Shown one piece after another: positions 1,865 to 40,572 of a DNA stretch of 64,000 nucleotides (the stretch's first letter is position 1; each line of letters begins with the position of its first letter). The position numbers and the translations under genes were made by a program. This stretch comes from Escherichia phage 308Ecol101PP, in sequence record OR062945.1; one strand, 5' to 3'. The notes under the pieces were generated by a model that saw only the letters and a program-made list of their open reading frames with translations, did not search any database and was not told where the DNA came from.

Positions 1865-3549
1865 AATCATTTAAATTAAATCGTGTTCGTTATCAAAACA
1901 TCATGTCGGTAGGTGGGAATCCTATTGACATCCAATTAGATAAAGTCCAAAAGACATTAATCACTGGTAAAAATGGCGGTGGTAAATCTACGATGTTAGA
2001 AGCCATTACTTTCGGACTTTTCGGTAAACCATTTCGTGATGTTAAGAAAGGGCAAATCATTAATAGCACGAACAAGAAAGAGCTCTTAGTTGAGCTTTGG
2101 ATGGAATTCGATGGTAAAAAATACTTCATTAAACGTGGCCAAAAGCCCAATATTTTCGAAATCTCCGTTGACGGTGTTCGTCTCGATGAATCTGCCAGCA
2201 GTCGTGACTTCCAAGAAGAATTTGAACGTAGCATCGGAATGTCATACGCGTCTTTTAAACAAATCGTTGTGCTTGGGACGGCAGGGTATACCCCTTTCAT
2301 GGCTCTTAGCACCCCTGCTCGTAGAAAACTTGTCGAAGACCTTTTAGAAGTCGGCACACTCGCCGAAATGGATAAAATCAATAAGTCTCAAGTTCGAGAA
2401 CTTAATTCTCAGGGACAAGTTCTTGATGCCAAGAAAGATGGTATTATCCAACAAATTAAGATTTATAATGAGAATATCGAACGTCAAAAGAAATTATCTG
2501 GTGATAATGTAGCGCGTCTACAGAATATGTATGACGACCTAGCCAAAGAAGCTCGTTCATTAAAAGCAGAAATCGAAGAAGCTAATGAGCGACTACTTAA
2601 TATCGTTCTTGATGAAGACCCTACTGAGGCATTCAACAAGATCGGACAAGAAGCATTCTTGATTAAATCTAAAATCGACTCATATAACAAAGTTATTAAG
2701 ATGTATCATGACGGTGGTACATGTCCTACTTGTGCATCGCAGTTGCACCAGGGTGATCCTATTGTCTCTAAGATTACCGATAAGCTTCACGAATGTAATC
2801 ACTCATTCGAGCAACTTACATGTCACAGAGATAATCTGAGTGTCCTAGTGGACGAATATAGAGCTAATGTTAAGACTAAACAGGACCTTGCATCTGATAT
2901 TCGTACCAAGAAACAAGCAATGATTGCCACTATTGATAAAGCTAAGAAAGTTAAAGCTGCAATAGAGCAAGCCTCAGCAGAATTTATCGACCATGCCGAT
3001 GAGATAGCTTTGCTTCAAAAAGAACTTGATAAAATCATTAAAACAAAATCAGATATCGTTCTTGAAAAATACCATCGTGGTATTATCACAGATATGTTAA
3101 AAGATTCTGGTATTAAAGGTGCTATCATTAAAAAATATGTGCCTCTGTTCAACAAGCAGATTAACCATTATCTTAAAATCATGGAAGCTGATTACGTGTT
3201 TTCTATTGATGAAGAATTCAATGAATCTATAAAATCACGTGGCCGTGAAGAGTTCAGTTATGCTTCATTTAGTCAAGGCGAAAAAGCGCGTATCGATATC
3301 GCATTGTTGTTTACATGGCGAGATATTGCTGAAAAGGTCTCTGGTGTTAGAATCAATACATTAATTATGGACGAAGTCATGGATTCCGCGACTGATTCTG
3401 AAGGTATTAAAGCTATTTCAACAATTCTTAACTCTCTAACCGATGCAAACGTGTTTATAATTAGTCACAGAGACCATGACCCACAAGCTTATGGACAACA
3501 TCTTCAAATGAGCAAAGTTGGACGATTTACTGTAATGACTGTTTCATAA
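1861..3549 (+). CDS. 46: gp46 recombination endonuclease subunit (Rad50/SbcC-like ATPase)
   Basis: 562 aa; Walker A GKNGGGKST near N-terminus, central coiled coil with CPTC zinc hook, C-terminal signature/Walker B (LIMDEV). Confidence 0.95.
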   Translation: MKSFKLNRVRYQNIMSVGGNPIDIQLDKVQKTLITGKNGGGKSTMLEAITFGLFGKPFRDVKKGQIINSTNKKELLVELWMEFDGKKYFIKRGQKPNIFEISVDGVRLDESASSRDFQEEFERSIGMSYASFKQIVVLGTAGYTPFMALSTPARRKLVEDLLEVGTLAEMDKINKSQVRELNSQGQVLDAKKDGIIQQIKIYNENIERQKKLSGDNVARLQNMYDDLAKEARSLKAEIEEANERLLNIVLDEDPTEAFNKIGQEAFLIKSKIDSYNKVIKMYHDGGTCPTCASQLHQGDPIVSKITDKLHECNHSFEQLTCHRDNLSVLVDEYRANVKTKQDLASDIRTKKQAMIATIDKAKKVKAAIEQASAEFIDHADEIALLQKELDKIIKTKSDIVLEKYHRGIITDMLKDSGIKGAIIKKYVPLFNKQINHYLKIMEADYVFSIDEEFNESIKSRGREEFSYASFSQGEKARIDIALLFTWRDIAEKVSGVRINTLIMDEVMDSATDSEGIKAISTILNSLTDANVFIISHRDHDPQAYGQHLQMSKVGRFTVMTVS

Positions 3550-9757: not shown

Positions 9758-10393
9758 ATGAAAACTACTCCTATTACTATCGCTATTGACGCAATCATAA
9801 AACAAGCTTCTTCTTTGGCCGCTATGGCCAAAGTAATTAGTCAAAACCCTGCTCGTTATAATGCTATTCTAGAAACTCTTCGACGCCCAGGACTTAGTAA
9901 TTATGAAAGCCGAGTAATTATTACAGGTGTTGGTAAGAATGCTAATATTGCAACTAAAGCTTCTGAGACATTTGCTTCACTTGGTATCCCGAGTATGTAC
10001 TTGAACACTGGGCATTATTCTCACGGTGATGCAGGATTCATTGCGCCTAATGATGTGTTGATTCATATTAGTCGTTCTGGTAAAACTGAAGAAATGATAG
10101 GCGTGGCTAAGCATCTTAAAATGATTCGTCCGAACGTCAAACAGATTCTGTTGCATTGTAACCCGGACATTCCACAAGAATACGAAGCTCTTTTTGATTA
10201 TACGTTCTGTACAGGCATCGCAGTAGAGGTTGATGAGAATTCTCTGGCTCCGACCATGTCCACTACATTGTTGTTAGCGCTTATCGATACGTTTGCTATC
10301 AACCTTTCGTCTGAACGTGGATTTACCTCTAATGACTTCCTTAAGTTCCACCCTGGTGGTGCACTAGGTGCCATGTTACGAGGCGAACAATGA
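9758..10393 (+). CDS. SIS-domain sugar-phosphate isomerase, KdsD/GutQ-type (arabinose-5-phosphate isomerase-like), no CBS domains
   Basis: 211 aa; motifs TGVGKNANIATKASETFASLG, HGDAG, SRSGKTEE typical of KdsD-type SIS domains; not a T4 gene. Confidence 0.7.
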   Translation: MKTTPITIAIDAIIKQASSLAAMAKVISQNPARYNAILETLRRPGLSNYESRVIITGVGKNANIATKASETFASLGIPSMYLNTGHYSHGDAGFIAPNDVLIHISRSGKTEEMIGVAKHLKMIRPNVKQILLHCNPDIPQEYEALFDYTFCTGIAVEVDENSLAPTMSTTLLLALIDTFAINLSSERGFTSNDFLKFHPGGALGAMLRGEQ

Positions 10394-10533
10394 AAGCAAT
10401 AACAATAGGACTTTTACTATTGATGCTTGTCATGACTATCTACTGGAGCTTAACGGCTCCAGTAATGATTCCGACTCTTATAATCGGATGGATTATGATT
10501 GGACTACAAGCAAAGTATGAATGCTTTAACTAG
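10390..10533 (+). CDS. small hydrophobic membrane peptide (47 aa)
   Basis: ATGA overlap with SIS gene stop; MKAITIGLLLLMLVMTIYWSLTAPVMIPTLIIGWIMIGLQ...; below ORF-track cutoff. Confidence 0.4.
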   Translation: MKAITIGLLLLMLVMTIYWSLTAPVMIPTLIIGWIMIGLQAKYECFN

Positions 10534-10574
10534 AATAGTGTACAATACTCCTACTTACCAATGAGGACCACAAC

Positions 10575-12260
10575 ATGAAAAAAGCTGTTATTCTTGGTGC
10601 TGGACTGGCAACTCGTTTGTATCCAATAACGCATCATATTCCTAAGGTGCTTGTTAACTATAAACAAGACACTATTCTGAGCAATTTGTATACAATTTAT
10701 TCTGACCTTGGCGCAGATGAAATTATTGTAGTAGTTCATTCAAAATTTGCTGAAACTGTTCGAGCTTATTGTGAGCAAGAAGGGTTCAATGTGACTATTC
10801 GTACAGTTGATGAAGCGTATGGTTCTGCTTATGCTCTTGCTAAATTGCACAAAGATTTAGACGGCCATAATGTAATTGTTAACTGGTGTGATATTATTCC
10901 TGATTTTGGTTCGTGGTCTTGGAATGTTAACGCAATCTATGTTAAGGGTGACGAATGTCGATATAATTTCGACGGTGAAAATATCACTAATGTAGGTTCA
11001 ACAGGTGGTAATGTTGTAGGAATTTATCAGTTCAAAGACTGGGAATTCTATATGGGTTCTACTGATGAGGAAATTCATGAATACTGCAAAGGACGTGATT
11101 TCGTAGAATTCCTTTACGGCAGCGCATTCAATAAATCAGAGCTTATGAATCTAATTGATTTAGGTGATATGCCTAAACTTGAAAAAGCTCATGAAGTTCG
11201 TGAACTTAATCGTAGTTTTAATGCAGTTGAAATTGGTGAAGAAACTGTAACTAAATTCGCATTAACCGAACAGGGCCGAGCTCTTCAGAAAGATGAGATT
11301 TCATGGTATCTTAAAGTGAAATCAGATTCAGTTCCTCAGTTAGTTTCTGTTAATGAAAATAACTTTGAAATGGAACGCATTAAAGGTAAGCCGGCATTTG
11401 AATATATTAAATCCAAATCAAGTCTTGCTCGTCCACAAATTGTTGATGCAATTTTAGATGCACTGAAATTCAGCACAGACACTTATTTTGTAAGTCCTGA
11501 AACTGTTCGTCGTGATTTCACTAAAGAATTCTATACTAAAGTTATTGATCGTTGTGAAAGTATTCAACCATTGATTGATTCATTTGGTAAAATCACACAT
11601 GTGAACTACACTAAGATTGGGCGTCTGAAGCCAATGTTGAAACAAGCTTTAGAACACCTTATTCGTTATCATAACCGTTCTCAGGGACAGTACTCTGTTA
11701 TTCATGGTGACCCGAACTTCAGTAATACTATGATTACTGATAATGGTGAAGTCAAGTTTATCGACCCTCGTGGATATTTTGGTGAAACCAAGATTTATGG
11801 GCCAAAATTGTATGATGAAGCTAAAGTGCTTTACGCTGTTTCAGGTTATGATGAATTCAACGCTAATCCGACTTGGGGACAGTTTACTATTGATGAAACA
11901 ACTTGTAATGTGACTATTAACATCAATCCGTTAGTTTACAAATATGGAAAGATGAGTTCGTTTAACGAGTATCATCATTTGGCAGTGGCAATTATCTGGA
12001 TTGCATTAGGTGGTTATTTCAAGAATAATCCACTTAAAGCGGTAGCCGCATATTATAAAGGTATGGAACTTCTGACTAAGCAATTACGTAATATGGGCCG
12101 TGTACTTCAGGACGGCACTATTAGTTATGATGTAGCAGAACCTGTAACGGCTACTCTGATTACAAAAAATCCTGGTAAATGGGTACTAACTGATAAAGAA
12201 ACTGGTGTTTCTTATCGTCCAATCGGTGGCGATATCACTCATCAATGGGAACGAATCTAA
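10575..12260 (+). CDS. bifunctional protein: N-terminal sugar-1-phosphate nucleotidyltransferase (RmlA/GalU-like) fused to C-terminal APH/choline-kinase-like sugar kinase
   Basis: 561 aa; N-terminal GAGLATRLYPIT (RmlA signature G-x-G-T-R-L-x-P-I-T) ; C-terminal HGDPNFSNTMI...IDPRGYFG (Brenner motif plus DxxG of kinase-like phosphotransferases). Confidence 0.7.
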   Translation: MKKAVILGAGLATRLYPITHHIPKVLVNYKQDTILSNLYTIYSDLGADEIIVVVHSKFAETVRAYCEQEGFNVTIRTVDEAYGSAYALAKLHKDLDGHNVIVNWCDIIPDFGSWSWNVNAIYVKGDECRYNFDGENITNVGSTGGNVVGIYQFKDWEFYMGSTDEEIHEYCKGRDFVEFLYGSAFNKSELMNLIDLGDMPKLEKAHEVRELNRSFNAVEIGEETVTKFALTEQGRALQKDEISWYLKVKSDSVPQLVSVNENNFEMERIKGKPAFEYIKSKSSLARPQIVDAILDALKFSTDTYFVSPETVRRDFTKEFYTKVIDRCESIQPLIDSFGKITHVNYTKIGRLKPMLKQALEHLIRYHNRSQGQYSVIHGDPNFSNTMITDNGEVKFIDPRGYFGETKIYGPKLYDEAKVLYAVSGYDEFNANPTWGQFTIDETTCNVTININPLVYKYGKMSSFNEYHHLAVAIIWIALGGYFKNNPLKAVAAYYKGMELLTKQLRNMGRVLQDGTISYDVAEPVTATLITKNPGKWVLTDKETGVSYRPIGGDITHQWERI

Positions 12261-12646
12261 TGCACCGTGTAAAAAACATGCTTAATCTTTGTTTTGATGT
12301 CGATGATTGTATAACAGAGTGGAATAACAATCGTGATTACGTGAACTTCAAACCAGACGTCGAAATGGTGTCTGCCATTAATGCCCTGTATGATGCAGGG
12401 CATACCATAACGCTTTACACTGCTCGCGGTATGAAGTCAGTAGGTCCTGGTCGTATAGCAATTGACATTCTCCCAAGTCTGATTCAGAACTTGGCAAACA
12501 TTGGATTGAAGTACCATAATTTGCTAACACATAAACCAGTATATGATTGGATTATCGACGACAAAGCTATGCGTCCTGACGAATTCAAAGCTCTTATGAA
12601 TAAAGGCGAATTCGAAACATTTAAATCATATAAACCGAATCTATAA
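12260..12646 (+). CDS. small cap-less HAD-superfamily phosphatase-like protein
   Basis: 128 aa from ATG 12260 (TAATG overlap; ORF track starts at 12245); motif I FDVDD, motif II LYTAR, Lys (HKP), motif IV WIIDDK. Confidence 0.55.
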   Translation: MHRVKNMLNLCFDVDDCITEWNNNRDYVNFKPDVEMVSAINALYDAGHTITLYTARGMKSVGPGRIAIDILPSLIQNLANIGLKYHNLLTHKPVYDWIIDDKAMRPDEFKALMNKGEFETFKSYKPNL

Positions 12647-12692
12647 TAATTTAAGTAAGACCTGCAAAAACCATCGCATCAATTAACGTGGG

Positions 12693-13868
12693 ATGCAAAA
12701 AAAAAAAATGAATACTTTTAAAATCGGAACGAATTTTGATTTAGCTCTTCTTGATAAAATCGTAGAGCTCAATAAAACTTATCCTAATAGCTTGATAAAC
12801 GAAGTATACGGCTCTACAAGAGAAATGGCTTTTGTAGCAGCCAGACCTGATTTTAGGCTTCCTGACGTTGACAAAAAGATGTTAGAAGATTACGTTAAAC
12901 GTTGTAACGAATTAGGTATTTGCTTTAACTATACACTCAACACGATAAATCCTGGTTCAAAAAGAGAACTAGTTGAGTGGAAGAAGAAAGCTATTCAGGA
13001 TTATGTTCAGTATCTTTGGTCAATAGGCGTATGGCGTATTACTATCGCTAACCCTGTTGTTATGGAAATTGTTCGTGAAGTCAATAAAGACATTGAGATT
13101 GAAGTTTCAACAATTCTACATGTCGATGCTGTAACTCAAATCAAATACTTGCATGACCAATATAATATCAAAAAGGTCTGCTGTGGAATTCATAAGAACC
13201 GTTCAGTTTCTTTCCTGAAACGTGCAGCAGAGTTTTGTAATAAGAACAATATAATATTTGAAGTTCTTGTAAATGAGTTCTGTTCTAATGCTGGTAAAGG
13301 GTACACAACACATTGTAGCTATCGTGACTCTTGCTATATTTTCCATAGCACCGATGTTACAGTAGATGATGCCAAATCCTTAAATGGATATCCAATGCAA
13401 CACTGTATTAAAGCTCGTGATACAGATCCATTTAACTGGTTGAGAACTCGTTTTGTTCGTCCTCAAGATTTGAAACTTTATAATGATATTGGTATCACTC
13501 AATTTAAAGTTTCAGGACGTACAGGTAGCACCGACTACATTTTAAAAGTTCTTGAAGCTTACGCTTCTGAAAAGTTTGAAGGTAATTTGTTGGAATTGTG
13601 GAAGCCTTTAGAGACCATTTTCACTCTTGAAAATGAGACTGAGTTTTCACATACGGTAAATATTGAAACCTCTTTGTTAGACGGCTTTTTAGAAAAAAGG
13701 TGGTTCAAACATCCAGATTTCGATTGTGCTAATGAAATCTGCGGGACGACGTGTACATATTGTGAAAGATATTATAAACGTCAGTTATCTAAAAATGGGT
13801 TATCAGAAAACTCTATATCTATTATTGATATAACTAACTCTGATGACGCTTTGAGGTACCCAGAATGA
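12693..13868 (+). CDS. U32-family (peptidase U32 / UbiU-UbiV / RlhA-like) putative Fe-S protein
   Basis: 391 aa; U32-like blocks (ICFNYTLNT; EVLVNEFCSNAGKGYTTHCSY; FKVSGRTGS resembling the K-I-E-G-R motif); C-terminal CxxxCxxC (CGTTCTYC); alternative start ATG 12708 after an A12 run. Confidence 0.55.
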   Translation: MQKKKMNTFKIGTNFDLALLDKIVELNKTYPNSLINEVYGSTREMAFVAARPDFRLPDVDKKMLEDYVKRCNELGICFNYTLNTINPGSKRELVEWKKKAIQDYVQYLWSIGVWRITIANPVVMEIVREVNKDIEIEVSTILHVDAVTQIKYLHDQYNIKKVCCGIHKNRSVSFLKRAAEFCNKNNIIFEVLVNEFCSNAGKGYTTHCSYRDSCYIFHSTDVTVDDAKSLNGYPMQHCIKARDTDPFNWLRTRFVRPQDLKLYNDIGITQFKVSGRTGSTDYILKVLEAYASEKFEGNLLELWKPLETIFTLENETEFSHTVNIETSLLDGFLEKRWFKHPDFDCANEICGTTCTYCERYYKRQLSKNGLSENSISIIDITNSDDALRYPE

Positions 13869-14026
13869 TTTCTAGAAAAACTTTTAACCACCAACTTAAC
13901 GAAGAGATTTTGACTATTAAAATTAACAGCAACGAACAAATTCTTAAAAAGGCCCTTATGGGCCTGTTTGAAACTAAAGCGGCTAAAGTGATTAAAGAAA
14001 CCTGTTCAACTAGAATACTACGCTGA
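13865..14026 (+). CDS. small hypothetical protein (53 aa)
   Basis: ATGA overlap with preceding stop; below ORF-track cutoff. Confidence 0.3.
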   Translation: MISRKTFNHQLNEEILTIKINSNEQILKKALMGLFETKAAKVIKETCSTRILR

Positions 14027-14105
14027 TGCATTTCTTCATAGTGTTCTTGGAAATATCGATGCTGAAGCTTTACGTTATATCAACATCGCTAAGAAATTCA
14101 AATAA

Positions 14106-14128
14106 GCTTTATGAATTGAGTATATAAT
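14106..14128 (+). promoter_or_regulatory. putative MotA-dependent middle promoter upstream of gene 42 homologue
   Basis: GCTTTA (MotA-box-like) 11 nt upstream of TATAAT. Confidence 0.35.
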
Positions 14129-14146
14129 AACTGTATTGAGGTAAAC

Positions 14147-14863
14147 ATGGGAAAACATAACACAATGAAATATATTAAAGCCGCAGATTTTCAATCCGCA
14201 TTTAAAGCTGTCAATCGTGAAATTTTAGAAAATCCACAGTTCGTTACTGATTCTCGTATTGGACGTTGTAATGAAATTGGGTCTATGACAGTAGTTGTTG
14301 ATACCCCTTCATCATTCAAAATGACCGACCCACGTATTAATCGCATCTCTTATGAATATGCTGAAGATTTCTGGAAATTTATGATTTCTGGTGGTACTGA
14401 TGCAAAAGAAGCATTTAAGGCATATCCTAACGTTGCTAAATTTATTTCTAAACCTAAATCAGACGCTTTGCCTGCAAACTTCAACACTTTCTATGGTCCA
14501 CGAATTGCGGCCCAGTTACCAGCTCTTCTCAAAGAACTTAAAGAGAAACCTAATTCACGAAGAGTTGTGTTTCAAATTCTTGAAAGTTCAGATCAGGCTT
14601 TGCTTGATTCGGATGAAACGCTTGAATATCCATGTACTGACTCAGTGACTTATTATATTCGTGATGGTAAGCTTTATACCCACTGTCATATGCGTTCTCA
14701 GAACTGTGCTGTTGTTATGCAGTTGGATTTTTATCTCCAAGGAAAATTACTTCATTATATCGCTAACGAATGTGGTGTAGAAGTTGGTGATTATACTCAT
14801 ACCATGGTAAGTGCCCATGTGTTTGAACGTGATTTTGATTATGTTAAAGGATTCCTTGACTAA
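14147..14863 (+). CDS. 42: thymidylate-synthase-fold deoxynucleotide hydroxymethylase, gp42 (dCMP hydroxymethylase) homologue
   Basis: 238 aa; NSRRVVFQ, EYPCTDSVTYYIRDGKLYTHCHMRSQN, VSAHVFERDF align with T4 gp42/TS active-site blocks as recalled; T4 gene order. Confidence 0.7.
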   Translation: MGKHNTMKYIKAADFQSAFKAVNREILENPQFVTDSRIGRCNEIGSMTVVVDTPSSFKMTDPRINRISYEYAEDFWKFMISGGTDAKEAFKAYPNVAKFISKPKSDALPANFNTFYGPRIAAQLPALLKELKEKPNSRRVVFQILESSDQALLDSDETLEYPCTDSVTYYIRDGKLYTHCHMRSQNCAVVMQLDFYLQGKLLHYIANECGVEVGDYTHTMVSAHVFERDFDYVKGFLD

Positions 14864-15762
14864 TGGCTATTTTCCGCGTACCTATCTTGAGTATGCGGTC
14901 TTATGAAACTGGACAGTATGCTATCCTTAAGGATGGCAACTTCCAACTTCATTTGCACCGTGCTAATCCGGGTGATGTGATTACATATCCACGTAATGCA
15001 TCTGATATTAAAGAATGCGAACGTCTTTTTCCAGAATTTAAGTTTGTTCCATTATGGTATAAAGATAACGCGTATAACACTCGTAAATATTTCTGGTCTG
15101 AAAATGAATTTGTGGTTGATTCATTAATTGCTTATTATGATTGTGATTTTCTAATCACAGATATCACTGGATATGACGGCGCTTTTGATGTGGAATTCAA
15201 TTTCAATATCACTGCAGACCCTAATAAACCACGTTTTTATATTGACGAATTCTTAAAAACCGACATGTTGTCGGTTAATCGTTCACTTCAAACTACTGTG
15301 TTGAATGAACGTCAAAAAGAAGTGCTGGTTAACGCAGGTGCAGATGGTAATAAGATTATCGTAACCCAGAAAGTTATACGTCCTTCCATCATGCAGCGTC
15401 TTGTAGGTGATTTGGCTCCTATTCATCTAGATGGTATTTTTCATCCATTTCGAATTAGTGACCCGTGCTATCGTTTTGAACAAGTGGTTGAATGTGCAAT
15501 TCAATTAGGTCAACCGCTTTATATAACTGATCCAAATAATAGTTTCGACAGAAATAAGTATCCTGAAGAAGCGCTGATTCGAATTTTTAATCCAACTAAA
15601 ACTGAGTACTATCAAATTCTTAAAGGACGTCCGAAGATTCAATATTTCGAAAATCCTGAAGAAGTATTCCATCCAGGTCTTGGTGAGTTCATCTACTTTA
15701 ATGCTTTAATTTCTTCGCCGTATAATATACCTAAATACGAAGATGTCGTAATCGAGGAATAA
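14863..15762 (+). CDS. hypothetical protein in the position of T4 beta-glucosyltransferase (299 aa), no recognisable similarity to beta-gt
   Basis: TAATG coupled start after gene 42 homologue; no motif recognised. Confidence 0.5.
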   Translation: MAIFRVPILSMRSYETGQYAILKDGNFQLHLHRANPGDVITYPRNASDIKECERLFPEFKFVPLWYKDNAYNTRKYFWSENEFVVDSLIAYYDCDFLITDITGYDGAFDVEFNFNITADPNKPRFYIDEFLKTDMLSVNRSLQTTVLNERQKEVLVNAGADGNKIIVTQKVIRPSIMQRLVGDLAPIHLDGIFHPFRISDPCYRFEQVVECAIQLGQPLYITDPNNSFDRNKYPEEALIRIFNPTKTEYYQILKGRPKIQYFENPEEVFHPGLGEFIYFNALISSPYNIPKYEDVVIEE

Positions 15763-15763
15763 A

Positions 15764-16312
15764 ATGGTTAAAATTATTTTAGTAGATGGCCCGGATAATG
15801 CCGGTAAAACAACTTTCATTAATGACATAATGGAAATTAGTGAAAGATATGTAAAGATTGATTTCCCTAAACGAACAGTTGATGGACGTTTCGATGTTAA
15901 GTCTCGAAATGAAGTTGGCTGTTTCGAAACGATGTTGAATTATTTAGACCCTACTAAGATTTATCTGTTAGACCGTGGATATATTAGTAACTGGGTTTAT
16001 GGACGTATTCGACAAGATGCGGACTCGGTTCTTGACGTTTATGAACAGGATTATGTTCGTCTTTGCCAAAACCATGATGTGTTCACAATTATTTTAACAC
16101 GTAACGAAATGACTGAAAGTTTTGAAGACGACCTTATTACTTTGTCTTCATTCGGTTTTAATACAGTCATTTCATATTTTGAAGAGTTTGCAATTCATAA
16201 CAAAATCCAAACGTATCAATTACTTAATCATGACGGTGCTAACAAAGTTATAGGATTTAATGCAAGCGAACGTAATTATTTGATTACAGAAATTATCAAA
16301 TGGGCTCGTTAA
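15764..16312 (+). CDS. P-loop NTPase, putative nucleoside/nucleotide kinase-like protein
   Basis: 182 aa; Walker A LVDGPDNAGKTT at N-terminus, size typical of dNMP/dNK kinases. Confidence 0.5.
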   Translation: MVKIILVDGPDNAGKTTFINDIMEISERYVKIDFPKRTVDGRFDVKSRNEVGCFETMLNYLDPTKIYLLDRGYISNWVYGRIRQDADSVLDVYEQDYVRLCQNHDVFTIILTRNEMTESFEDDLITLSSFGFNTVISYFEEFAIHNKIQTYQLLNHDGANKVIGFNASERNYLITEIIKWAR

Positions 16313-35029: not shown

Positions 35030-35047
35030 GGGCTTCGGCCCTTTTTG
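35030..35047 (+). terminator. UUCG hairpin terminator
   Basis: GGGC-TTCG-GCCC followed by TTTTTGCTTT. Confidence 0.6.
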
Positions 35048-35092
35048 CTTTAGATTTCGGATGATAGAATACCTTCATAACGAGGAGACAAC

Positions 35093-36910
35093 ATGATTAA
35101 AAATGAAATTAAGGTATTGTCAGATGTAGAACATATTAAGAAACGTAGTGGCATGTATATTGGTTCTTCGGCCAAAGAAGCCCACGAGCGTTTTTTGTTT
35201 GGTAAATATCAACAAGTTGAATATGTTCCTGGTCTGGTTAAATTAATCGATGAGATTATTGACAACTCGGTTGATGAAGCTATTCGTACATCATTTAAGT
35301 TTGCAAATAAAATCGATGTGCAAATTAAAAATAATCAAGTTTCGGTGGAAGATAACGGACGTGGTATTCCTCAAGGTTTAGTTACCGACCAAACAGGTGA
35401 ACAAATTCCTGGGCCTGTAGCAGCCTGGACTATTCCAAAGGCTGGTGGTAACTTTGGTGATGACTCTGAACGCAAGACTGGCGGTATGAACGGCGTCGGG
35501 AGTAGTTTAACTAATATCTTCTCTACGTTGTTTACAGGCATAACGTCAGATGGCGAAAATGAAATCACTGTTAACTGTTCAAACGGAATGGAAAACAAAT
35601 CGTGGTCTTCTAAGAAATCTAAAGGTAAAGGCACTAAAGTAATCTTCACTCCTGATTTCTCTTCGTTTGAAGAACATAATTTATCTCAAATTTATTTAGA
35701 TATTACTTTAGACCGACTTCAAACATTGGCAGTCGTTTATCCTGATATCAAGTTCACATTTAATGGTAAAAAGGTTGATGGTAATTTTAAACGATTTGCT
35801 AAACAATTTGGCGAAGATAACATCATTCAAGAAAATGATAAAGTCTCTATAGCATTCACAACATCACCAGATGGCTTCCGTCATTTAACTTATGTGAATA
35901 ACATCCATACTAAAAATGGTGGTCATCATGTTGAATGTGTAATGGATGATATCTGCGAACATCTTTTGCCGGGTATTAAAAAGAAATATAAGGGTATTGA
36001 AGTCACTAAAGCTCGTGTTAAAGAATGTCTCACAATGTTGATGTTTATTAGAGACATGAGCAACATGCGTTTTGATTCTCAGACTAAAGAACGTTTAACG
36101 TCAACGTATGGTGATATTCGTAATCATATCCAATTGGATGCTAAGAAAATTGCTCAGGCACTTCTTAAAAACGAAGCCTTGATTATGCCTATTGTTGAAG
36201 CAGCATTAGCTCGTAAATTGGCAGCAGAAAAGGCTGCAGAAACTAAAGCAGCTAAAAAGGCAACTAAAGCTAAGGTTCATAAGCATATTAAAGCTAACCA
36301 ATGTGGTAAAGATGCAGATACGACATTGTTCTTAACAGAAGGTGATTCGGCAATTGGTTATCTCATTGATGTTCGTGACCGTGAACTACACGGCGGATTC
36401 CCATTACGTGGTAAGGTGATGAATAGCTGGGGTATGTCATATGCTGATATGATGAAGAACAAAGAGCTCTTTGATATCTGTGCTATCACAGGTCTTATTC
36501 TTGGTGAAAAGGCAGAGAACACGAACTATCGTAATATTGCAATTATGACCGATGCCGATCATGACGGTCTTGGAAGTATTTATCCGGCTTTGCTTGCTTT
36601 CTTTAGTAATTGGCCTGAATTGTTTGAACAAGGACGTATTCGCTTTGTTAAAACGCCTGTAATTATTGCACAAATTGGCAAAACTCAAAAATGGTTTTAT
36701 ACTGTAGCTGAGTATGAAGAAGCTAAAGATACACTTCCTAAGCATAGTATTCGATACATCAAGGGATTAGGCTCCCTTGAAAAGTCAGAATATCGTGAAA
36801 TGATTCAGAACCCTGTGTACGACGTAGTTAAACTTCCTGAAAATTGGAAAGAACTCTTTGAAATGTTGTTGGGTGATGATTCAGAACTTCGTAAAGAATG
36901 GATGTCCTAA
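35093..36910 (+). CDS. 39: gp39 DNA topoisomerase II large subunit (GyrB-like ATPase plus TOPRIM), unsplit form
   Basis: 605 aa; GHKL ATPase motifs (IDEIIDNSVDEA, EDNGRGIP), TOPRIM (LTEGDSA, DADHDG); one continuous ORF. Confidence 0.9.
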   Translation: MIKNEIKVLSDVEHIKKRSGMYIGSSAKEAHERFLFGKYQQVEYVPGLVKLIDEIIDNSVDEAIRTSFKFANKIDVQIKNNQVSVEDNGRGIPQGLVTDQTGEQIPGPVAAWTIPKAGGNFGDDSERKTGGMNGVGSSLTNIFSTLFTGITSDGENEITVNCSNGMENKSWSSKKSKGKGTKVIFTPDFSSFEEHNLSQIYLDITLDRLQTLAVVYPDIKFTFNGKKVDGNFKRFAKQFGEDNIIQENDKVSIAFTTSPDGFRHLTYVNNIHTKNGGHHVECVMDDICEHLLPGIKKKYKGIEVTKARVKECLTMLMFIRDMSNMRFDSQTKERLTSTYGDIRNHIQLDAKKIAQALLKNEALIMPIVEAALARKLAAEKAAETKAAKKATKAKVHKHIKANQCGKDADTTLFLTEGDSAIGYLIDVRDRELHGGFPLRGKVMNSWGMSYADMMKNKELFDICAITGLILGEKAENTNYRNIAIMTDADHDGLGSIYPALLAFFSNWPELFEQGRIRFVKTPVIIAQIGKTQKWFYTVAEYEEAKDTLPKHSIRYIKGLGSLEKSEYREMIQNPVYDVVKLPENWKELFEMLLGDDSELRKEWMS

Positions 36911-36930
36911 GCTCCTTCTGGAGCTTCATT
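36909..36930 (+). terminator. possible terminator hairpin after gene 39
   Basis: AGCTCC-TTCT-GGAGCT followed by TCATTTTAATTTT. Confidence 0.35.
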
Positions 36931-36952
36931 TTAATTTTAATAAGGCTTAATT

Positions 36953-38053
36953 ATGAAAGTTATGTTTATCCCATCTCGCGCAGTCCCATTTAATCCTGAC
37001 CGTGTACAAGGTGGTCTTGAAGCAGTACATTTAAATGTGTTGAAATATCTTGTGTCCATCGGTGCTGATATTGATTATATCGGCTTTGATAATGACACGT
37101 TTGGTGACTGGAAAGTTACACACCATCCTGTTGGTCATCTGACTAAATTTAGTCTAGGTATGAGTTATACTATGGCTCGTAAGATTGTTGAACTAGCCGG
37201 CATCCATGAATACGATTTTGTTGTTACTATGGAACCGACTAAACTAACCGTTCAGGCAATTAAAGACGCAGGTCTCTCTAAAGTTCATAAGAATTTTATG
37301 GCAACACCATTTGAACCGGTATCTCGTGGCATTGTTCAAATTTGGGACCAGACTATTCAAATTCATAAGAATGGTGGTAAGAGTTATGCTCCTACTAAAG
37401 CCTTCCGTGAATTTGAACGCAAATATTGTTATATGACTTCAGGTCTGACTGACAAAATTGATTATGATTATTGGCGAGCAAATCCGTTGTTTGAAGCCGA
37501 AGATTATCCGGTTATTTGTTTGAATGAGAAACCTGAAGTTCTTCCGGCGACTGATCTGATTATTAGTGCACAACGTTATGACACTAAAATGCGTCGTACT
37601 GATGTTGCTCTTGAAGCGATTAAAGCACTAGGCGAAAATGGTGTAGGATACTGTCCAAGCAAATGGGCACCACCAGCTAAATATCCTGTTATTATTGATG
37701 CTCCACACAGTGAAATCATGGAACGTCTTAAAACAGCTAAAGCGCTTATTAATACGTGTCCTGACACAGGTACGGTAGAGAATAGTTCTATTGAAGCCAT
37801 CTCTAAAGGTGTCCCTGTAATCCAGTTAGTTTTTAAGGATTATCCTCATGCGACATTCGAATACGACCCAGATACTGTGCGTGTAGAAATTGATTCCTCT
37901 ACTCCTAAGAAAGAAGTAGTTGCGCTTTACACAAAAGCTGTATTAGAATTCACTGACACATACGAAGCTCGAGTTAAACGTGCTGAAGCAGTATGGAAGA
38001 AGTATAACCGAGATGCAGTTGTTGCGATGTGGGATAAAATCTTCACAGCGTAA
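36953..38053 (+). CDS. GT-B fold glycosyltransferase (GT4-like), candidate DNA hydroxymethylcytosine glycosyl (pentosyl) transferase
   Basis: 366 aa; C-terminal GT-B donor-binding pattern CPDTGTVENSSIEAISKGVPVI (E-x7-E); located between gene 39 and rIIA. Confidence 0.6.
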   Translation: MKVMFIPSRAVPFNPDRVQGGLEAVHLNVLKYLVSIGADIDYIGFDNDTFGDWKVTHHPVGHLTKFSLGMSYTMARKIVELAGIHEYDFVVTMEPTKLTVQAIKDAGLSKVHKNFMATPFEPVSRGIVQIWDQTIQIHKNGGKSYAPTKAFREFERKYCYMTSGLTDKIDYDYWRANPLFEAEDYPVICLNEKPEVLPATDLIISAQRYDTKMRRTDVALEAIKALGENGVGYCPSKWAPPAKYPVIIDAPHSEIMERLKTAKALINTCPDTGTVENSSIEAISKGVPVIQLVFKDYPHATFEYDPDTVRVEIDSSTPKKEVVALYTKAVLEFTDTYEARVKRAEAVWKKYNRDAVVAMWDKIFTA

Positions 38054-38145
38054 ATCCTGAATCGCCTGAGGCACTATTACACATAAGATGATAAATTATA
38101 TGGTCTTTAGTAATAGTGCCCTAGGAATCTACTGAAGAGAATATT

Positions 38146-38346
38146 ATGAGAACATATAACGTGGACTTGGAACTTTTTGATAAAGCAGTGCTCCGGGAAT
38201 TCCGGCTTATCCAAAGATTTTTTGATATCGAGTCAGCAGAGTCCTTTAAAGAACGCTTTAAAGAAATTCGATATAAAATACAAACCGATACAGCTACTAA
38301 AGAAGAACTTCTTGAAGTAGCAGAAATTTTTAAACGTAACTTGTGA
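38146..38346 (+). CDS. hypothetical protein (66 aa)
   Basis: SD GAAGAGAATATT; helical small protein. Confidence 0.45.
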   Translation: MRTYNVDLELFDKAVLREFRLIQRFFDIESAESFKERFKEIRYKIQTDTATKEELLEVAEIFKRNL

Positions 38347-38358
38347 TGAGAGAAAAAT

Positions 38359-40572
38359 ATGATTATTGAAACGGCTAAAGAAACGATTATTGGTTCAGGC
38401 GGTAAGAGCACAGCATTTACTATTCAAGGCAATAGCAAAGTTTATAAGATTTTGTCTAATGACCTTTATACAAACAAAGAATTGGCTTGTGTACGTGAAT
38501 TAATCACAAACTGTATTGATGGGCAAATTCTTAATGGTTGCACTGATAAGTTTATTGTTCAGGCTCCAGGTCGTTTAGACCCACGTTTTGTAGTTCGTGA
38601 TTTTGGACCTGGTATGAGTGATTTCACTATTCGTGGTAATGACGAAGAGCCAGGAATTTATAACTCATATTTTGCTTCAACTAAAACATCGAGTAACGAT
38701 TTCATTGGTGGATTCGGACTCGGCTCTAAAGCTCCATTAGCATATACTGATACGTTTAACCTTACGTCTTATCATAATGGTGAAGTTCGTGGTTACGTAA
38801 TCTACCAAGATGACACAGGTCCACAGATTAAGCCGACCTTTGTAGATAAGATGGGTCCTGATGACCGTACGGGTGTAGAAGTAGTTGTACCGGTTAACCC
38901 GGAAGATTTTGAAAAGTTTGCATCCGAAATTGCATATGTTATGCGTCCTCTAGGTGATATTGCAGAAGTTCGTGGTGTTAAAGATATTAAATACTTCCCA
39001 GAATTTGATGATGTATATTTGGCCAAGGAAGCTCCATGGGGTGAACGTGGTAATATCATGGCTGTTTATGGCGGTATTGTATATCCAATCGGAAGTGTTA
39101 TTAAAGAACAAACATGGATGATGACACGATGCACTACAGCTTATATTAAATTCCCAATGGGTGAACTAGATGTTGCTCCGTCTCGCGAAGCATTGTCATT
39201 TGATAAACGTACAGTAGCAAATATCCATAAACGCGTTGCAGAAATCGATGCTAAATTGTTCGCTGAAGATTCTAAGAAATGGATTGATTGTAAATACCCA
39301 CGACATGTGTTCCGCGAAATTGATTCTCTTGGCTATACCGCTCGTAAATACATGGAAAAGGCCGGGTCTAATATTGAATCACTGAAATACTCTAAAGAAC
39401 AACTAACTTATTCTGAGTTGTACAAACGTTTTAAAATGGGACCTGAGTGGTGTAATCTTGGTGTCGTATACGATATCGTTGAATCCCCTCGTCTTCGTCG
39501 TATTCGTGAAAGTGGTAGCTCATCATCAACCATTTCAATTAACAGCCTGATTGGCATTAACATTAAAAACGTTGAAATTGTTATTGACGATGTTAAGGGA
39601 CGCGTTCCATTAATGCGAGCTCTTAATTCAATTGAAATGTCTAAAGACGAGGTTAAATTATCCGGTAAAGTTCCACGCGGTTTTGGTAAAAGCGTACTAT
39701 TCGTTGACCCTACAGACGAAGATGCAATGAAACTTCTGGAACGCCTTAAAGTTATCTTTGATGGCGACAACATTAACATGTACAAGACTTCAGAGCTTTT
39801 ACAAATCGTTAAGCCATGGATTGAAGTCAGGAAACGGACTAATGAGCCTCGTCCTAAATCCCCGAGTGCTCATCGATTCTTTAAGAATGAAAACGATGTT
39901 TGGGTATCAGAAGACCTCTTTATTCCGGCAAGTGAAGCAGATGAAATCCAAGGTTATGCTATAGTTCGTAATCGTTCTAATGCTGAATGTCTTGACGCAG
40001 ATAAAGGTTGGTTGAACTATGACTCCAATTTCTTGACCCGTATTGCTGATTTGTCAGGTATTAAAGAGTTCACTGTAGTTCGTCCACAGATTGCTAAGAA
40101 AGTTCGTAAACTTGGTGAAGTAGAATGCTTGTTCGAAAAATCAATTAATGACTATATTACGCTAATTGATAAAGTGGATTATGATGAGTATGTATCACCA
40201 AGTCGTAGAGCACAGCCTTATTTGAATCATATTACTCGTAACGAAGAGCTTAACTTCCTTAGTAAGTATTTTAGCTCTAAGAACAAAGAAATCAGTAAAG
40301 ACTTTGCAAAACTCTCAACAGTAAATAATCGTTGGGGATGGAATCGATTCGCAGGTGCTACTAATACAGACCTGAATAAGAAGTTAGAATTGTGTGCTAA
40401 AATTTTCGATAAGCTTAAAGATAATGCTTACGATAATGATGATAAAATGGTTATTGAATTCGAAACCAATTATCATATTGTGTCAGAATACATGGGACGA
40501 CGTGGTACTCTTTCCAAAGAACAGGTCGCTCAAATCGTTAAATTCATGAAGGCCGTGGAAGCGGCCAAATAA
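38359..40572 (+). CDS. rIIA: rIIA protein
   Basis: 737 aa; N-terminal GHKL-type ATPase-like motif (VRELITNCIDG, DFGPGM); followed by rIIB; T4 gene order. Confidence 0.8.
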   Translation: MIIETAKETIIGSGGKSTAFTIQGNSKVYKILSNDLYTNKELACVRELITNCIDGQILNGCTDKFIVQAPGRLDPRFVVRDFGPGMSDFTIRGNDEEPGIYNSYFASTKTSSNDFIGGFGLGSKAPLAYTDTFNLTSYHNGEVRGYVIYQDDTGPQIKPTFVDKMGPDDRTGVEVVVPVNPEDFEKFASEIAYVMRPLGDIAEVRGVKDIKYFPEFDDVYLAKEAPWGERGNIMAVYGGIVYPIGSVIKEQTWMMTRCTTAYIKFPMGELDVAPSREALSFDKRTVANIHKRVAEIDAKLFAEDSKKWIDCKYPRHVFREIDSLGYTARKYMEKAGSNIESLKYSKEQLTYSELYKRFKMGPEWCNLGVVYDIVESPRLRRIRESGSSSSTISINSLIGINIKNVEIVIDDVKGRVPLMRALNSIEMSKDEVKLSGKVPRGFGKSVLFVDPTDEDAMKLLERLKVIFDGDNINMYKTSELLQIVKPWIEVRKRTNEPRPKSPSAHRFFKNENDVWVSEDLFIPASEADEIQGYAIVRNRSNAECLDADKGWLNYDSNFLTRIADLSGIKEFTVVRPQIAKKVRKLGEVECLFEKSINDYITLIDKVDYDEYVSPSRRAQPYLNHITRNEELNFLSKYFSSKNKEISKDFAKLSTVNNRWGWNRFAGATNTDLNKKLELCAKIFDKLKDNAYDNDDKMVIEFETNYHIVSEYMGRRGTLSKEQVAQIVKFMKAVEAAK

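Follow-up and report, generated by a model that had tools for sequence, protein, structure and literature searches.

The open reading frame at positions 36953–38053 of Escherichia phage 308Ecol101PP (sequence record OR062945.1) raises the question of whether its product is a DNA glycosyltransferase and, if so, which step of a DNA modification pathway it catalyzes. The stretch of DNA analyzed here, referred to as the window, is 64,000 nucleotides in length, and the reading frame, its motifs, the signals upstream of it and the genes of the cluster at 9758–16312 are located on the + strand. A preliminary description of the window had placed a gene for a GT-B glycosyltransferase between topoisomerase gene 39 and rIIA. 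The reading frame extends from an ATG to a stop codon and encodes a protein of 366 amino acids. It is flanked on one side by gene 39 (topoisomerase II large subunit, 605 amino acids, 35093–36910), with Pfam matches for GyrB, HATPase and Toprim, and on the other side by rIIA.1 (38146–38346; PF24210, E 2e-30), followed by rIIA (38359–40572). The exact coordinates and the neighbors identified with Pfam thus bear out the proposed position, as well as the statement that the gene is found at neither of the two T4 glucosyltransferase loci. The gene order 39, reading frame, rIIA.1 and rIIA is the same as that of RB69p004, p003, p002 and p001 in RB69, and the same order is found in HX01. A Shine-Dalgarno-like AAGG, read from the letters, appears at 36942–36945, 7 nt upstream of the ATG. 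A hairpin that resembles a terminator (AAGCTCC-TTCT-GGAGCTT, with a T-rich run after it; 36909–36926) overlaps the stop codon of gene 39 and is 27 nt upstream of the start of the reading frame. The terminator scan around the gene returned one site versus 0.9 expected by shuffling, and the hairpin alone is not significant. The counts of promoters and terminators around the gene do not exceed those of shuffled sequence, and no regulatory claim is made.

Sequence comparisons clearly point to a real gene that is under purifying selection rather than a chance reading frame. The gene is kept in 155 Mosigvirus genomes with a nucleotide identity of 90–99.9%. It differs from the RB69 copy by 17 synonymous and 3 non-synonymous codons, and from the copy in JK45 by 17 synonymous codons and 1 non-synonymous codon. 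The 90% cluster that holds the protein is shared with 253 Mosigvirus sequences, and the exact sequence of 366 residues is already deposited in NCBI and UniRef (phages SF and F2; “Glycosyltransferase, Mosigvirus”). Other public labels of the gene (“hypothetical protein”, “DNA alpha-glucosyltransferase” and “ATP-binding protein”) are uninformative or wrong. We rejected as a misnomer the name “DNA alpha-glucosyltransferase” that RefSeq gives to the copy in HX01; the T4 enzyme is only 10% identical and differs in locus, donor and acceptor.

The protein aligns without gaps to RB69 ORF003c, also named gp3 (RB69p003, NP_861693.1), with 363 of the 366 residues identical. The two proteins are equal in length, differ at 3 amino acids and are encoded at the same place between gene 39 and rIIA.1. 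The glycosyltransferase of phage HY126 (PDB 9IQZ and 9IR0) is an ortholog as well, with about 3–4 amino acid differences from the window protein. Thomas et al. 2018 (PMC6024577) proposed that ORF003c is the arabinosyltransferase of RB69, and the preliminary description correctly mentioned such a proposal for the gene at this position (99% identical). A proposal from 2026 makes it the second, beta-linking enzyme, listed as “beta-arabinosyltransferase 2” in Table 1 of PMC13326640, and the same role is given in PMC13390438. An arabinosyltransferase named Aat was deleted from phage Bas46 and the mutant was sensitized to a defense system, according to a secondary citation, which credits the work to a 2025 paper (Mahler et al. 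2025). Record MZ501046 was considered as the genome of Bas46 and rejected; it is that of Bas44, a Tequatrovirus. We take Aat of Bas46 to be probably the 366-residue protein. The gene, the structure of its product and the role proposed for it have all been published before, and the window adds no new biology.

The AlphaFold2 model of the protein (pLDDT 91.5, pTM 0.87) contains two Rossmann-like alpha/beta domains and a C-terminal helix that returns to the N-terminal domain, as is characteristic of the GT-B fold. The protein is 98–99% identical to the “phage HY126 glycosyltransferase” of 9IQZ and 9IR0, and its structure matches that of the solved HY126 enzyme. UDP is named as bound in the title of 9IR0, the protein of which is 99% identical to the window protein. 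The GT-B fold claimed for the reading frame is therefore confirmed at the level of structure.

The assignment to GT4 by sequence fared differently. The preliminary description had stated that the reading frame ends in a GT4/GT-B donor-binding pattern, TGTVENSSIEAISKGVPVI. The pattern is present at residues 272–290 (37766–37822), which is not the end of the protein but a point three quarters into it. No match was obtained in Pfam at E ≤ 1 or in NCBIfam, PF00534, PF13692 and PF13439 did not reach their gathering thresholds, and PHROG 8302, which holds the protein, is annotated as “unknown function”. Since none of these resources returned a glycosyltransferase match, the GT4 pattern is without statistical support by sequence alone. 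Distant members of the family reach glycosyltransferase profiles only below the Pfam cut-off, with E values of 0.013–0.048 for P0136 (Glycos_transf_1 and Glyco_trans_1_4, on the region of the pattern) and 0.0028 for P0009 (GT4-conflict).

Within the family formed by ORF003c and its homologues, no block is more conserved than this pattern, and it is folded in the model as a helix (277–284) followed by a strand (289–294). E276 and E281 are kept in all of the full-length members. The family sequence reads E276-x4-E281 and then A-I-S-x-G-x-P-V. In the EX7E pattern of GT4 enzymes the two glutamates are eight residues apart; the second glutamate and the G-x-P-V of the ORF003c family fit, and EAxxxGxPV resembles the end of the motif, but the first glutamate is off register and not at –8. 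Two other conserved segments are found. The glycine-rich loop GGLE (residues 20–23, 37010–37021) follows beta-strand 1 (residues 2–6 in the model), and G20, G21 and L22 are invariant; from general knowledge of GT-B enzymes we take this loop to be the counterpart of the N-terminal glycine loop of GT4. The segment SAQRYDTKMRR (residues 205–215, 37565–37597; Q-R-x-D...R-K/R) follows the strand 203–206 where the C-terminal Rossmann domain begins, and Q207, R208, D210, R214 and K/R215 show no or almost no variation. By analogy with the GR....KG motif of GT4, its basic residues likely bind phosphate.

The donor substrate is suggested by an NDP-arabinofuranose cassette at 9758–13868, recognized with Pfam and NCBIfam and 98–99.5% identical to RB69p055, p053+p052, p051 and p050. 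The cassette encodes an SIS/arabinose-5-P isomerase (9758–10393), an AfhE-like bifunctional nucleotidyltransferase and kinase (10575–12260), an AfhF-like HAD-type phosphatase (12245–12646) and a U32-peptidase-like protein (12693–13868), with the roles of the enzymes as given in PMC13326640. The region 9758–16312 is 97.4% identical in nucleotide sequence to that of RB69, and the 5-hydroxy-dCMP synthase and the UDP-arabinose cassette co-occur with the 366-residue gene. At the position of gene 42 a thymidylate synthase homologue is encoded (14147–14863; PF00303; 98.7% identical to RB69 gp48), which is a predicted 5-hydroxy-dCMP synthase and not a dCMP hydroxymethylase. In an alignment made by eye with E. 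coli ThyA, N186 is 23 residues past C163 (RSQN), the equivalent of the catalytic cysteine, and presumably matches the described D169N signature. RB69 gp48 is marked as “confirmed experimentally” in PMC13326640. The modified base is 5-hydroxycytosine, and the earlier assumption of hmC was wrong.

The slot after gene 42 was also misread in the preliminary description, where it was said to hold a protein unrelated to beta-gt. The 299-residue protein encoded there (14863–15762), directly after the ThyA homologue, is a compact GT-B as well, corresponds to a fusion of RB69p047 and p046, and is found in all of the arabinosylating T4-like phages. There are two GT-B transferases in the window, not one, and the 299-residue protein is the likelier of the two to be the first (base-proximal, alpha) arabinosyltransferase. 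In conflict with this role, UDP-xylose pyrophosphorylase activity in vitro has been reported for its homologue in Thanatos. The cluster is closed before uvsX by a thymidylate-kinase-like nucleotide kinase of 182 amino acids (15764–16312), 97.8% identical to RB69p045 (“thymidylate kinase”).

The fold, the near-identity to a crystallized UDP-binding enzyme, the orthology to RB69 ORF003c, the purifying selection and the co-variation with sugar-chain length found here are combined with two results from published work, namely the modification chemistry and the activity on DNA that the Acinetobacter paralogues show in vitro when supplied with UDP-Araf. On these grounds, we consider it probable that the 366-residue protein acts in the arabinosyl-5-hydroxycytosine pathway as a GT-B DNA glycosyltransferase that depends on a UDP-sugar and adds the second arabinose. 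The proposed pathway would begin with 5-hydroxy-dCMP, made by the ThyA homologue (14147–14863), in place of dCMP, and with UDP-d-arabinofuranose made by the cassette enzymes encoded at 9758–12646. After replication, the 299-residue GT-B would attach the first, alpha-linked arabinofuranose to O5 of the cytosine, and the 366-residue enzyme would add a second arabinofuranose to the first sugar in a beta-1,3 linkage. [quoted passage not shown] For the second transfer, DNA and not a nucleotide is the inferred acceptor; for the first arabinosylation, mononucleotide and DNA were not distinguishable as acceptors in the work of Lee et al. Of the earlier proposal that this gene encodes the enzyme that uses the cassette product, the tie to the NDP-arabinose cassette thus stands for a candidate in DNA glycosylation. 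The role of starter is improbable, and the enzyme is probably an extender of the sugar chain. If Aat is the same gene, the Bas46 mutant known from the secondary citation fits an accessory, non-essential step.

In the published chemistry of the modification the base-proximal sugar is alpha-linked and the second and third sugars, the linkages attributed to this family, are beta-linked. A beta configuration for both of the latter fits one enzyme family with one stereochemical outcome. The nearest structural neighbors of both phage GT-Bs are of the retaining type, and the linkages credited to the two enzymes are opposite in anomeric configuration. The fold therefore does not settle which GT-B makes which bond, and an assignment of retaining or inverting chemistry from the fold neighbors was rejected. 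It is conceivable, though unlikely, that one GT4-like scaffold has been switched between retention and inversion on the single donor UDP-d-Araf, that the two assignments are reversed, or that the single Mosigvirus enzyme acts only as an oligomer, which sets the mono:di ratio of approximately 1:4 by sequence context. Any of these would represent a mechanistically new kind of DNA glycosyltransferase.

The order of the two transferases is addressed by the distribution of the ORF003c family. Phage records with the family number only 211. Of these, 155 are of the Mosigvirus type and have a single place, and each of the others, namely 55 Acinetobacter phages and one record that is mislabelled, has two. 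Phages of Serratia, Shewanella, Klebsiella and Yersinia, and others like them, gave no match. An apparent member from a Yersinia phage, “Tegunavirus sp. BRC001”, was rejected as a mislabelled Acinetobacter-type phage with two copies, 92% identical to the Acinetobacter phage protein. The 299-residue GT-B is found in 348 records, which include Serratia, Shewanella, Klebsiella and Yersinia-type phages and Thanatos. Word-indexed searches for the ORF003c family returned 5 and then 10 clusters, and 1.84 billion representatives, searched exhaustively with a profile, yielded only 11 relatives and no bacterial GT4. Judged by these searches, the family is tiny and without a bridge to the bacterial GT4 enzymes. 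[quoted passage not shown] DLP3 and Maestro have two copies of the family each. The number of family copies tracks the chain length, with zero, one and two copies for mono-, di- and tri-arabinose, respectively.

This pattern bears directly on the earlier reading (Thomas et al. 2018, and the preliminary description) in which the 366-residue enzyme transfers the first arabinose to the modified cytosine. ORF003c was the sole glycosyltransferase that HMM methods detected in 2018 (PMC6024577), and its ortholog in the window is a bona fide UDP-binding GT-B. The reported pyrophosphorylase activity for the homologue of the 299-residue protein would also favor such a role, as would the finding of Lee et al. 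that single DLP3 glycosyltransferases, including the 299-type gp79, are inactive on 5hoC-DNA. However, the ORF003c family is missing from every arabinosylating lineage except the Mosigvirus and Acinetobacter phages. The lineages that lack it have the full cassette and the 299-residue GT-B, and mono-arabinosylation is nonetheless reported for at least Thanatos and LC53, so the first transfer cannot depend on the family. The Bas46 deletion mutant, as cited, also contrasts with Thanatos, where loss of the cassette gene TH1_060 nearly abolishes propagation. A starter role is judged improbable.

Addition of the second arabinose by the 366-residue enzyme could still depend on a partner. Lee et al. 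found that gp76 and gp77 of DLP3, both paralogues of this family and 57% identical to each other, are active only jointly, and the ORF003c family may thus act only as a complex. If the 366-residue enzyme were active only in a homo- or hetero-oligomer, for example with the 299-residue GT-B, the whole complex would set the chain length and there would be no independent second step. Mosigviruses, however, make the disaccharide with a single copy, and the gene has been translocated independently to a site 21 kb from that of the 299-residue GT-B, which argues against an obligate, co-evolving heterocomplex. We regard an obligate oligomer as no more probable than a starter role. An acceptor other than DNA (for instance a phage protein, a glycolipid of the host envelope or a small molecule), with a coincidental link to DNA arabinosylation, would suit the nearest structural relatives (PimA, WaaG, BshA and a tetrahydrobiopterin glycosyltransferase act on lipids, LPS and small molecules), the rank of only 33 for T4 alpha-GT among the structural neighbors and the location of the Mosigvirus gene in the early region beside rIIA and away from the cassette, but it is very improbable given that 55 genomes of Acinetobacter phages have homologues embedded within the arabinosylation cluster (DLP1_075 and DLP1_074 directly after the kinase), that the paralogues modify DNA in vitro and that the distribution follows the sugar-chain length.

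Arabinosylated 5-hydroxycytosine is a recently defined hypermodification of phage DNA that blocks type II restriction enzymes and reportedly gives protection from the Brig1 glycosylase and from type I CRISPR-Cas. Among coliphages, Mosigviruses are often used in therapy and as models. An assignment of each enzyme to its sugar would enable phages or DNA substrates to be engineered with a chosen number of arabinoses (one, two or three) and would help to predict the sensitivity to modification-dependent defenses. The value of this analysis is corrective, in that the acceptor is identified as 5-hydroxycytosine, two GT-Bs are recognized, and faulty public labels are exposed.

The suggested structural comparison with the T4 enzymes supported the GT-B fold but not a close relationship. 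T4 DNA alpha-glucosyltransferase (PDB 1Y6F and 1XV5) is 10% identical and ranks 33rd, behind about 30 bacterial GT4, GT5 and GT20 enzymes; neither sequence or Pfam homology to it nor its locus is found for the 366-residue protein. The same protein has neither sequence or close structural homology to T4 beta-gt nor the place after gene 42. The bacterial retaining GT-Bs of the GT4 type (BshA, PimA, MshA, WaaG and the sucrose-phosphate synthase Tll1590) are 10–15% identical, and the phage enzyme is set apart from them by its proposed acceptor, a sugar on DNA. The closest functional analogue is the beta-glucosyl-HMC-alpha-glucosyltransferase of T2 and T6 (“TAGT” type; gentiobiosyl-hmC), for which the acceptor is likewise the first sugar on a modified cytosine and a beta-linked second sugar is added. 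It differs in the transfer of glucose from UDP-Glc and in the hydroxymethyl linker, and there is no detectable sequence relationship, the window protein being without a Pfam match at E ≤ 1. Members of the same family are gp77 and gp76 of DLP3 (identical or near-identical to DLP1_075 and DLP1_074), which align over the full length with 41–43% identity and share the motifs GGLE, SAQR.D..R[KR], NTC..TGT[VI]E[NH].S.EAI..G.PV.QL and HAT.E.DP. The DLP3 pair acts on arabinosylated DNA with UDP-Araf and adds a third arabinose to RB69 DNA in vitro; the DLP3 product is a trisaccharide with a beta-1,5-linked third sugar. The Acinetobacter phages have two tandem copies within the cluster, whereas Mosigvirus has one translocated copy. 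The two Acinetobacter copies resemble each other (57%) more closely than they do the Mosigvirus protein. The duplication is therefore later than the split, and the Mosigvirus protein is a co-ortholog of both gp77 and gp76, not of gp77 in particular.

The open reading frame at 36953-38053 on the plus strand extends from an ATG to a stop codon and encodes a protein of 366 amino acids in DNA of the Mosigvirus type (RB69-like T4-type coliphage). The gene for the topoisomerase II large subunit (gene 39; 605 aa, GyrB, HATPase and Toprim domains) is found upstream at 35093-36910, and rIIA.1 (38146-38346; PF24210, E 2e-30) and rIIA (38359-40572) follow downstream, as located in the preliminary description. 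RB69 ORF003c (RB69p003) is identical at 363 of 366 residues and likewise lies between rIIA.1 and gene 39. The 1101-bp region shares 90-99.9% nucleotide identity with 155 phage records, the best match (99.9%) being phage HX01. Purifying selection acts on the gene, which differs from the RB69 copy at 17 synonymous and 3 non-synonymous codons and from that of phage JK45 at 17 and 1, respectively.

A hairpin with a 7-bp stem and a T-rich run is present at 36909-36926 on the plus strand, 27 nt upstream of the ATG, where it overlaps the stop codon of gene 39; one such terminator-like site is also given by shuffled sequence. In Shigella phage JK45 (MK962757.1), filed under Tequatrovirus despite its Mosigvirus-type genes, positions 2601-3200 contain a tandem duplication of approximately 500 bp that covers the 3' portion of the gene and the downstream spacer (window 37661-38149). 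The duplicated stretch is annotated as an additional 411-bp ORF and could be genuine or an assembly artefact. An HNH homing-endonuclease gene is inserted directly upstream of gene 39 in HX01 (NC_018855.1, 3462-4145); the window (35030-35092) has no insert and thus differs from HX01, even though the 366-aa gene is 99.9% identical in the two. Public labels for the 366-aa protein are "hypothetical protein", "ATP-binding protein" (JQD51), "glycosyltransferase" and "DNA alpha-glucosyltransferase", the last of these in the HX01 RefSeq record and in many Acinetobacter phages.

The assignment of a GT-B fold to this protein is secure. Structures of a phage HY126 glycosyltransferase that is 99% identical to it, including one with bound UDP, became available in 2025 (He et al. 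2026). The other strong structural matches are all NDP-sugar-dependent GT-B enzymes, T4 beta-glucosyltransferase is absent from the best 60 matches, and the structure resembles bacterial GT4-type enzymes more closely than it does the T4 alpha- or beta-glucosyltransferase. No match was obtained with Pfam at E<=1 or with NCBIfam, and the PHROG match, 8302, is labelled "unknown function". The GT4 motif thus led to a good guess at a GT-B enzyme, but the match itself lacks statistical support. The motif occupies residues 272-290 (nt 37766-37822), the most conserved block of the family, and not the end of the ORF; its EX7E element is atypical (E276-x4-E281). The protein is predicted to work like a GT4-type enzyme, yet it falls outside the sequence-profile definition of the Pfam GT4 families.

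Arabinose in RB69 DNA was reported by Thomas et al. (2018), who used HHpred and Phyre2 to identify ORF003c as the putative arabinosyltransferase (PMC6024577); the preliminary description was correct in referring to this proposal. The modified base is 5-hydroxycytosine, not hmC as assumed there, and 5-hydroxy-dCMP is made by the ThyA homologue RB69 gp48 (Lee et al. 2026, PMC13326640). RB69 DNA carries beta-D-Araf-(1-3)-alpha-D-Araf-O5-dC together with the mono form, and a trisaccharide is found in the DNA of Acinetobacter phage DLP3 (PMC13326640). In the same paper gp46:47, of the 299-aa type, is proposed as the first transferase, and gp3, the RB69 ortholog of the 366-aa protein, as "beta-arabinosyltransferase 2" (PMC13326640). 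Single glycosyltransferases were inactive on 5hoC-DNA in vitro, and a third arabinose was added to RB69 DNA from UDP-Araf by DLP3 gp76 and gp77 together (PMC13326640). The linkages attributed to the family of the 366-aa protein are all beta, and the base-proximal linkage is alpha. An independent study of Mosigvirus NP gave a mono:di ratio of 1:4. The finding is thus already known, the gene having been proposed in 2018, the structures released in 2025 and the second-sugar role printed in 2026.

The family is very small. Word-indexed searches returned 5 and then 10 clusters, and a profile search run exhaustively over 1.84 billion representatives gave 11 proteins, with no bacterial GT4 among them. 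Using tblastn against 50,697 phage genomes, the family was detected in 211 records. Mosigvirus-type records (those named Escherichia, Shigella, Enterobacteria, phage or Mosigvirus) account for 155, with one place each, and Acinetobacter T4-like phages for 55, with two places each. One record, OZ038340.1 ("Tegunavirus sp. BRC001"), was rejected as a Tegunavirus member of the family, since its two copies match Acinetobacter phage DLP1 at 92% identity; the record appears to be a mislabelled T4-like phage of the Acinetobacter type. Both Acinetobacter copies lie within the arabinosylation cluster, directly after the kinase. The single Mosigvirus copy lies 21 kb from the cluster and has moved out to the gene 39/rIIA.1 junction. 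The Acinetobacter paralogues are 57% identical to one another and 41-43% identical to the Mosigvirus protein. The two lines had therefore separated before the duplication took place, which makes gp76 and gp77 both co-orthologs of the Mosigvirus enzyme and slightly refines the published gp3-gp77 pairing.

Family copy number varies with chain length. The family is missing from mono-arabinosylated Thanatos and LC53, single-copy in the disaccharide makers RB69, NP, Bas46 and Bas47, and present twice in the trisaccharide maker DLP3, as it is in Maestro. All of the phages compared carry a GT-B of the 299-aa type. The Bas46 gene named Aat is presumably the same gene as that at 36953-38053. Other papers credit Mahler et al. 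2025 with the observations that LC53 is mono-arabinosylated and Bas46 (and Bas47) di-arabinosylated, and that Bas46 with the arabinosyltransferase Aat deleted is susceptible to a defence system. The 366-aa GT-B enzyme probably uses UDP-D-arabinofuranose as the donor and alpha-Araf-O5-cytosine in replicated DNA as the acceptor, extending it by beta-1,3-Araf. This activity possibly depends on a complex, since the paralogues gp76 and gp77 are active only as a pair. That the protein is instead the initiating arabinosyltransferase is unlikely, given the absence of its family from mono-arabinosylating phages. A non-DNA acceptor is highly improbable, because the Acinetobacter homologues sit in the cluster and the paralogues act on DNA in vitro.

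The whole arabinosylation cluster is present in the window and is 97.4% identical in nucleotide sequence to that of RB69. It encodes an arabinose-5-P isomerase (SIS domain, 9758-10393), a bifunctional nucleotidyltransferase/kinase (10575-12260, RB69p053 and p052 fused), a HAD-type phosphatase (12245-12646), a U32-like protein of 391 aa (12693-13868, plus strand; PF01136, E 7e-11), a thymidylate-synthase homologue (14147-14863, plus strand), a 299-aa protein (14863-15762, plus strand, RB69p047 and p046 fused) and a thymidylate-kinase-like protein (15764-16312), followed by uvsX. The U32-like protein has no counterpart in the cluster of Acinetobacter phage DLP1, and its sole description in Lee et al. 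is "sugar or heterocycle reductase" (PMC13326640). The thymidylate-synthase homologue is 98.7% identical to RB69 gp48. Its N186 (RSQN, 23 residues past the catalytic-Cys equivalent) is taken, from an alignment by eye, to occupy the position of D169 in E. coli ThyA. An Asn at this position is the signature described for 5hodCMP synthases. The protein is predicted to be a flavin-dependent 5-hydroxy-dCMP synthase rather than a dCMP hydroxymethylase. Labels for this "gene 42" homologue in many GenBank records are "dCMP hydroxymethylase" or "thymidylate synthase".

The 299-aa protein, dismissed in the preliminary description as unrelated, is a second GT-B candidate, so this genome has two and not one. 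The main inference about the 366-aa protein was reasonable; its ranking as the best candidate needs correction, the 299-aa protein being the proposed first transferase. The 299-aa protein is far more widespread than the 366-aa protein (138+ clusters; 348 phage records), and the records include Klebsiella, Serratia, Enterobacter, Proteus, Yersinia, Pectobacterium, Erwinia and Edwardsiella phages as well as Shewanella Thanatos phages. The Thanatos homologue was reported as a UDP-xylose pyrophosphorylase. In the HX01, IME341 and C6 records, the match to this protein overlaps a feature called "RNA polymerase binding protein". The best structural neighbours of both GT-B proteins are retaining-type enzymes (GT4/GT5/GT20), and the first linkage in RB69 DNA is alpha and the second beta. 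The two products are thus opposite anomers, and the fold by itself does not tell which enzyme catalyses which step. Should both enzymes draw on one UDP-D-Araf anomer, one of them would have to be inverting.

The 366-aa protein belongs to neither the T4 alpha- nor the T4 beta-glucosyltransferase family. Its closest functional analogue is the second-sugar transferase of T2/T6 (gentiobiosyl-hmC), with no detectable sequence relationship between the two. It is a member of the RB69 ORF003c/HY126 glycosyltransferase family, and effectively a copy, in sequence, synteny, structure and co-occurrence with the cassette.
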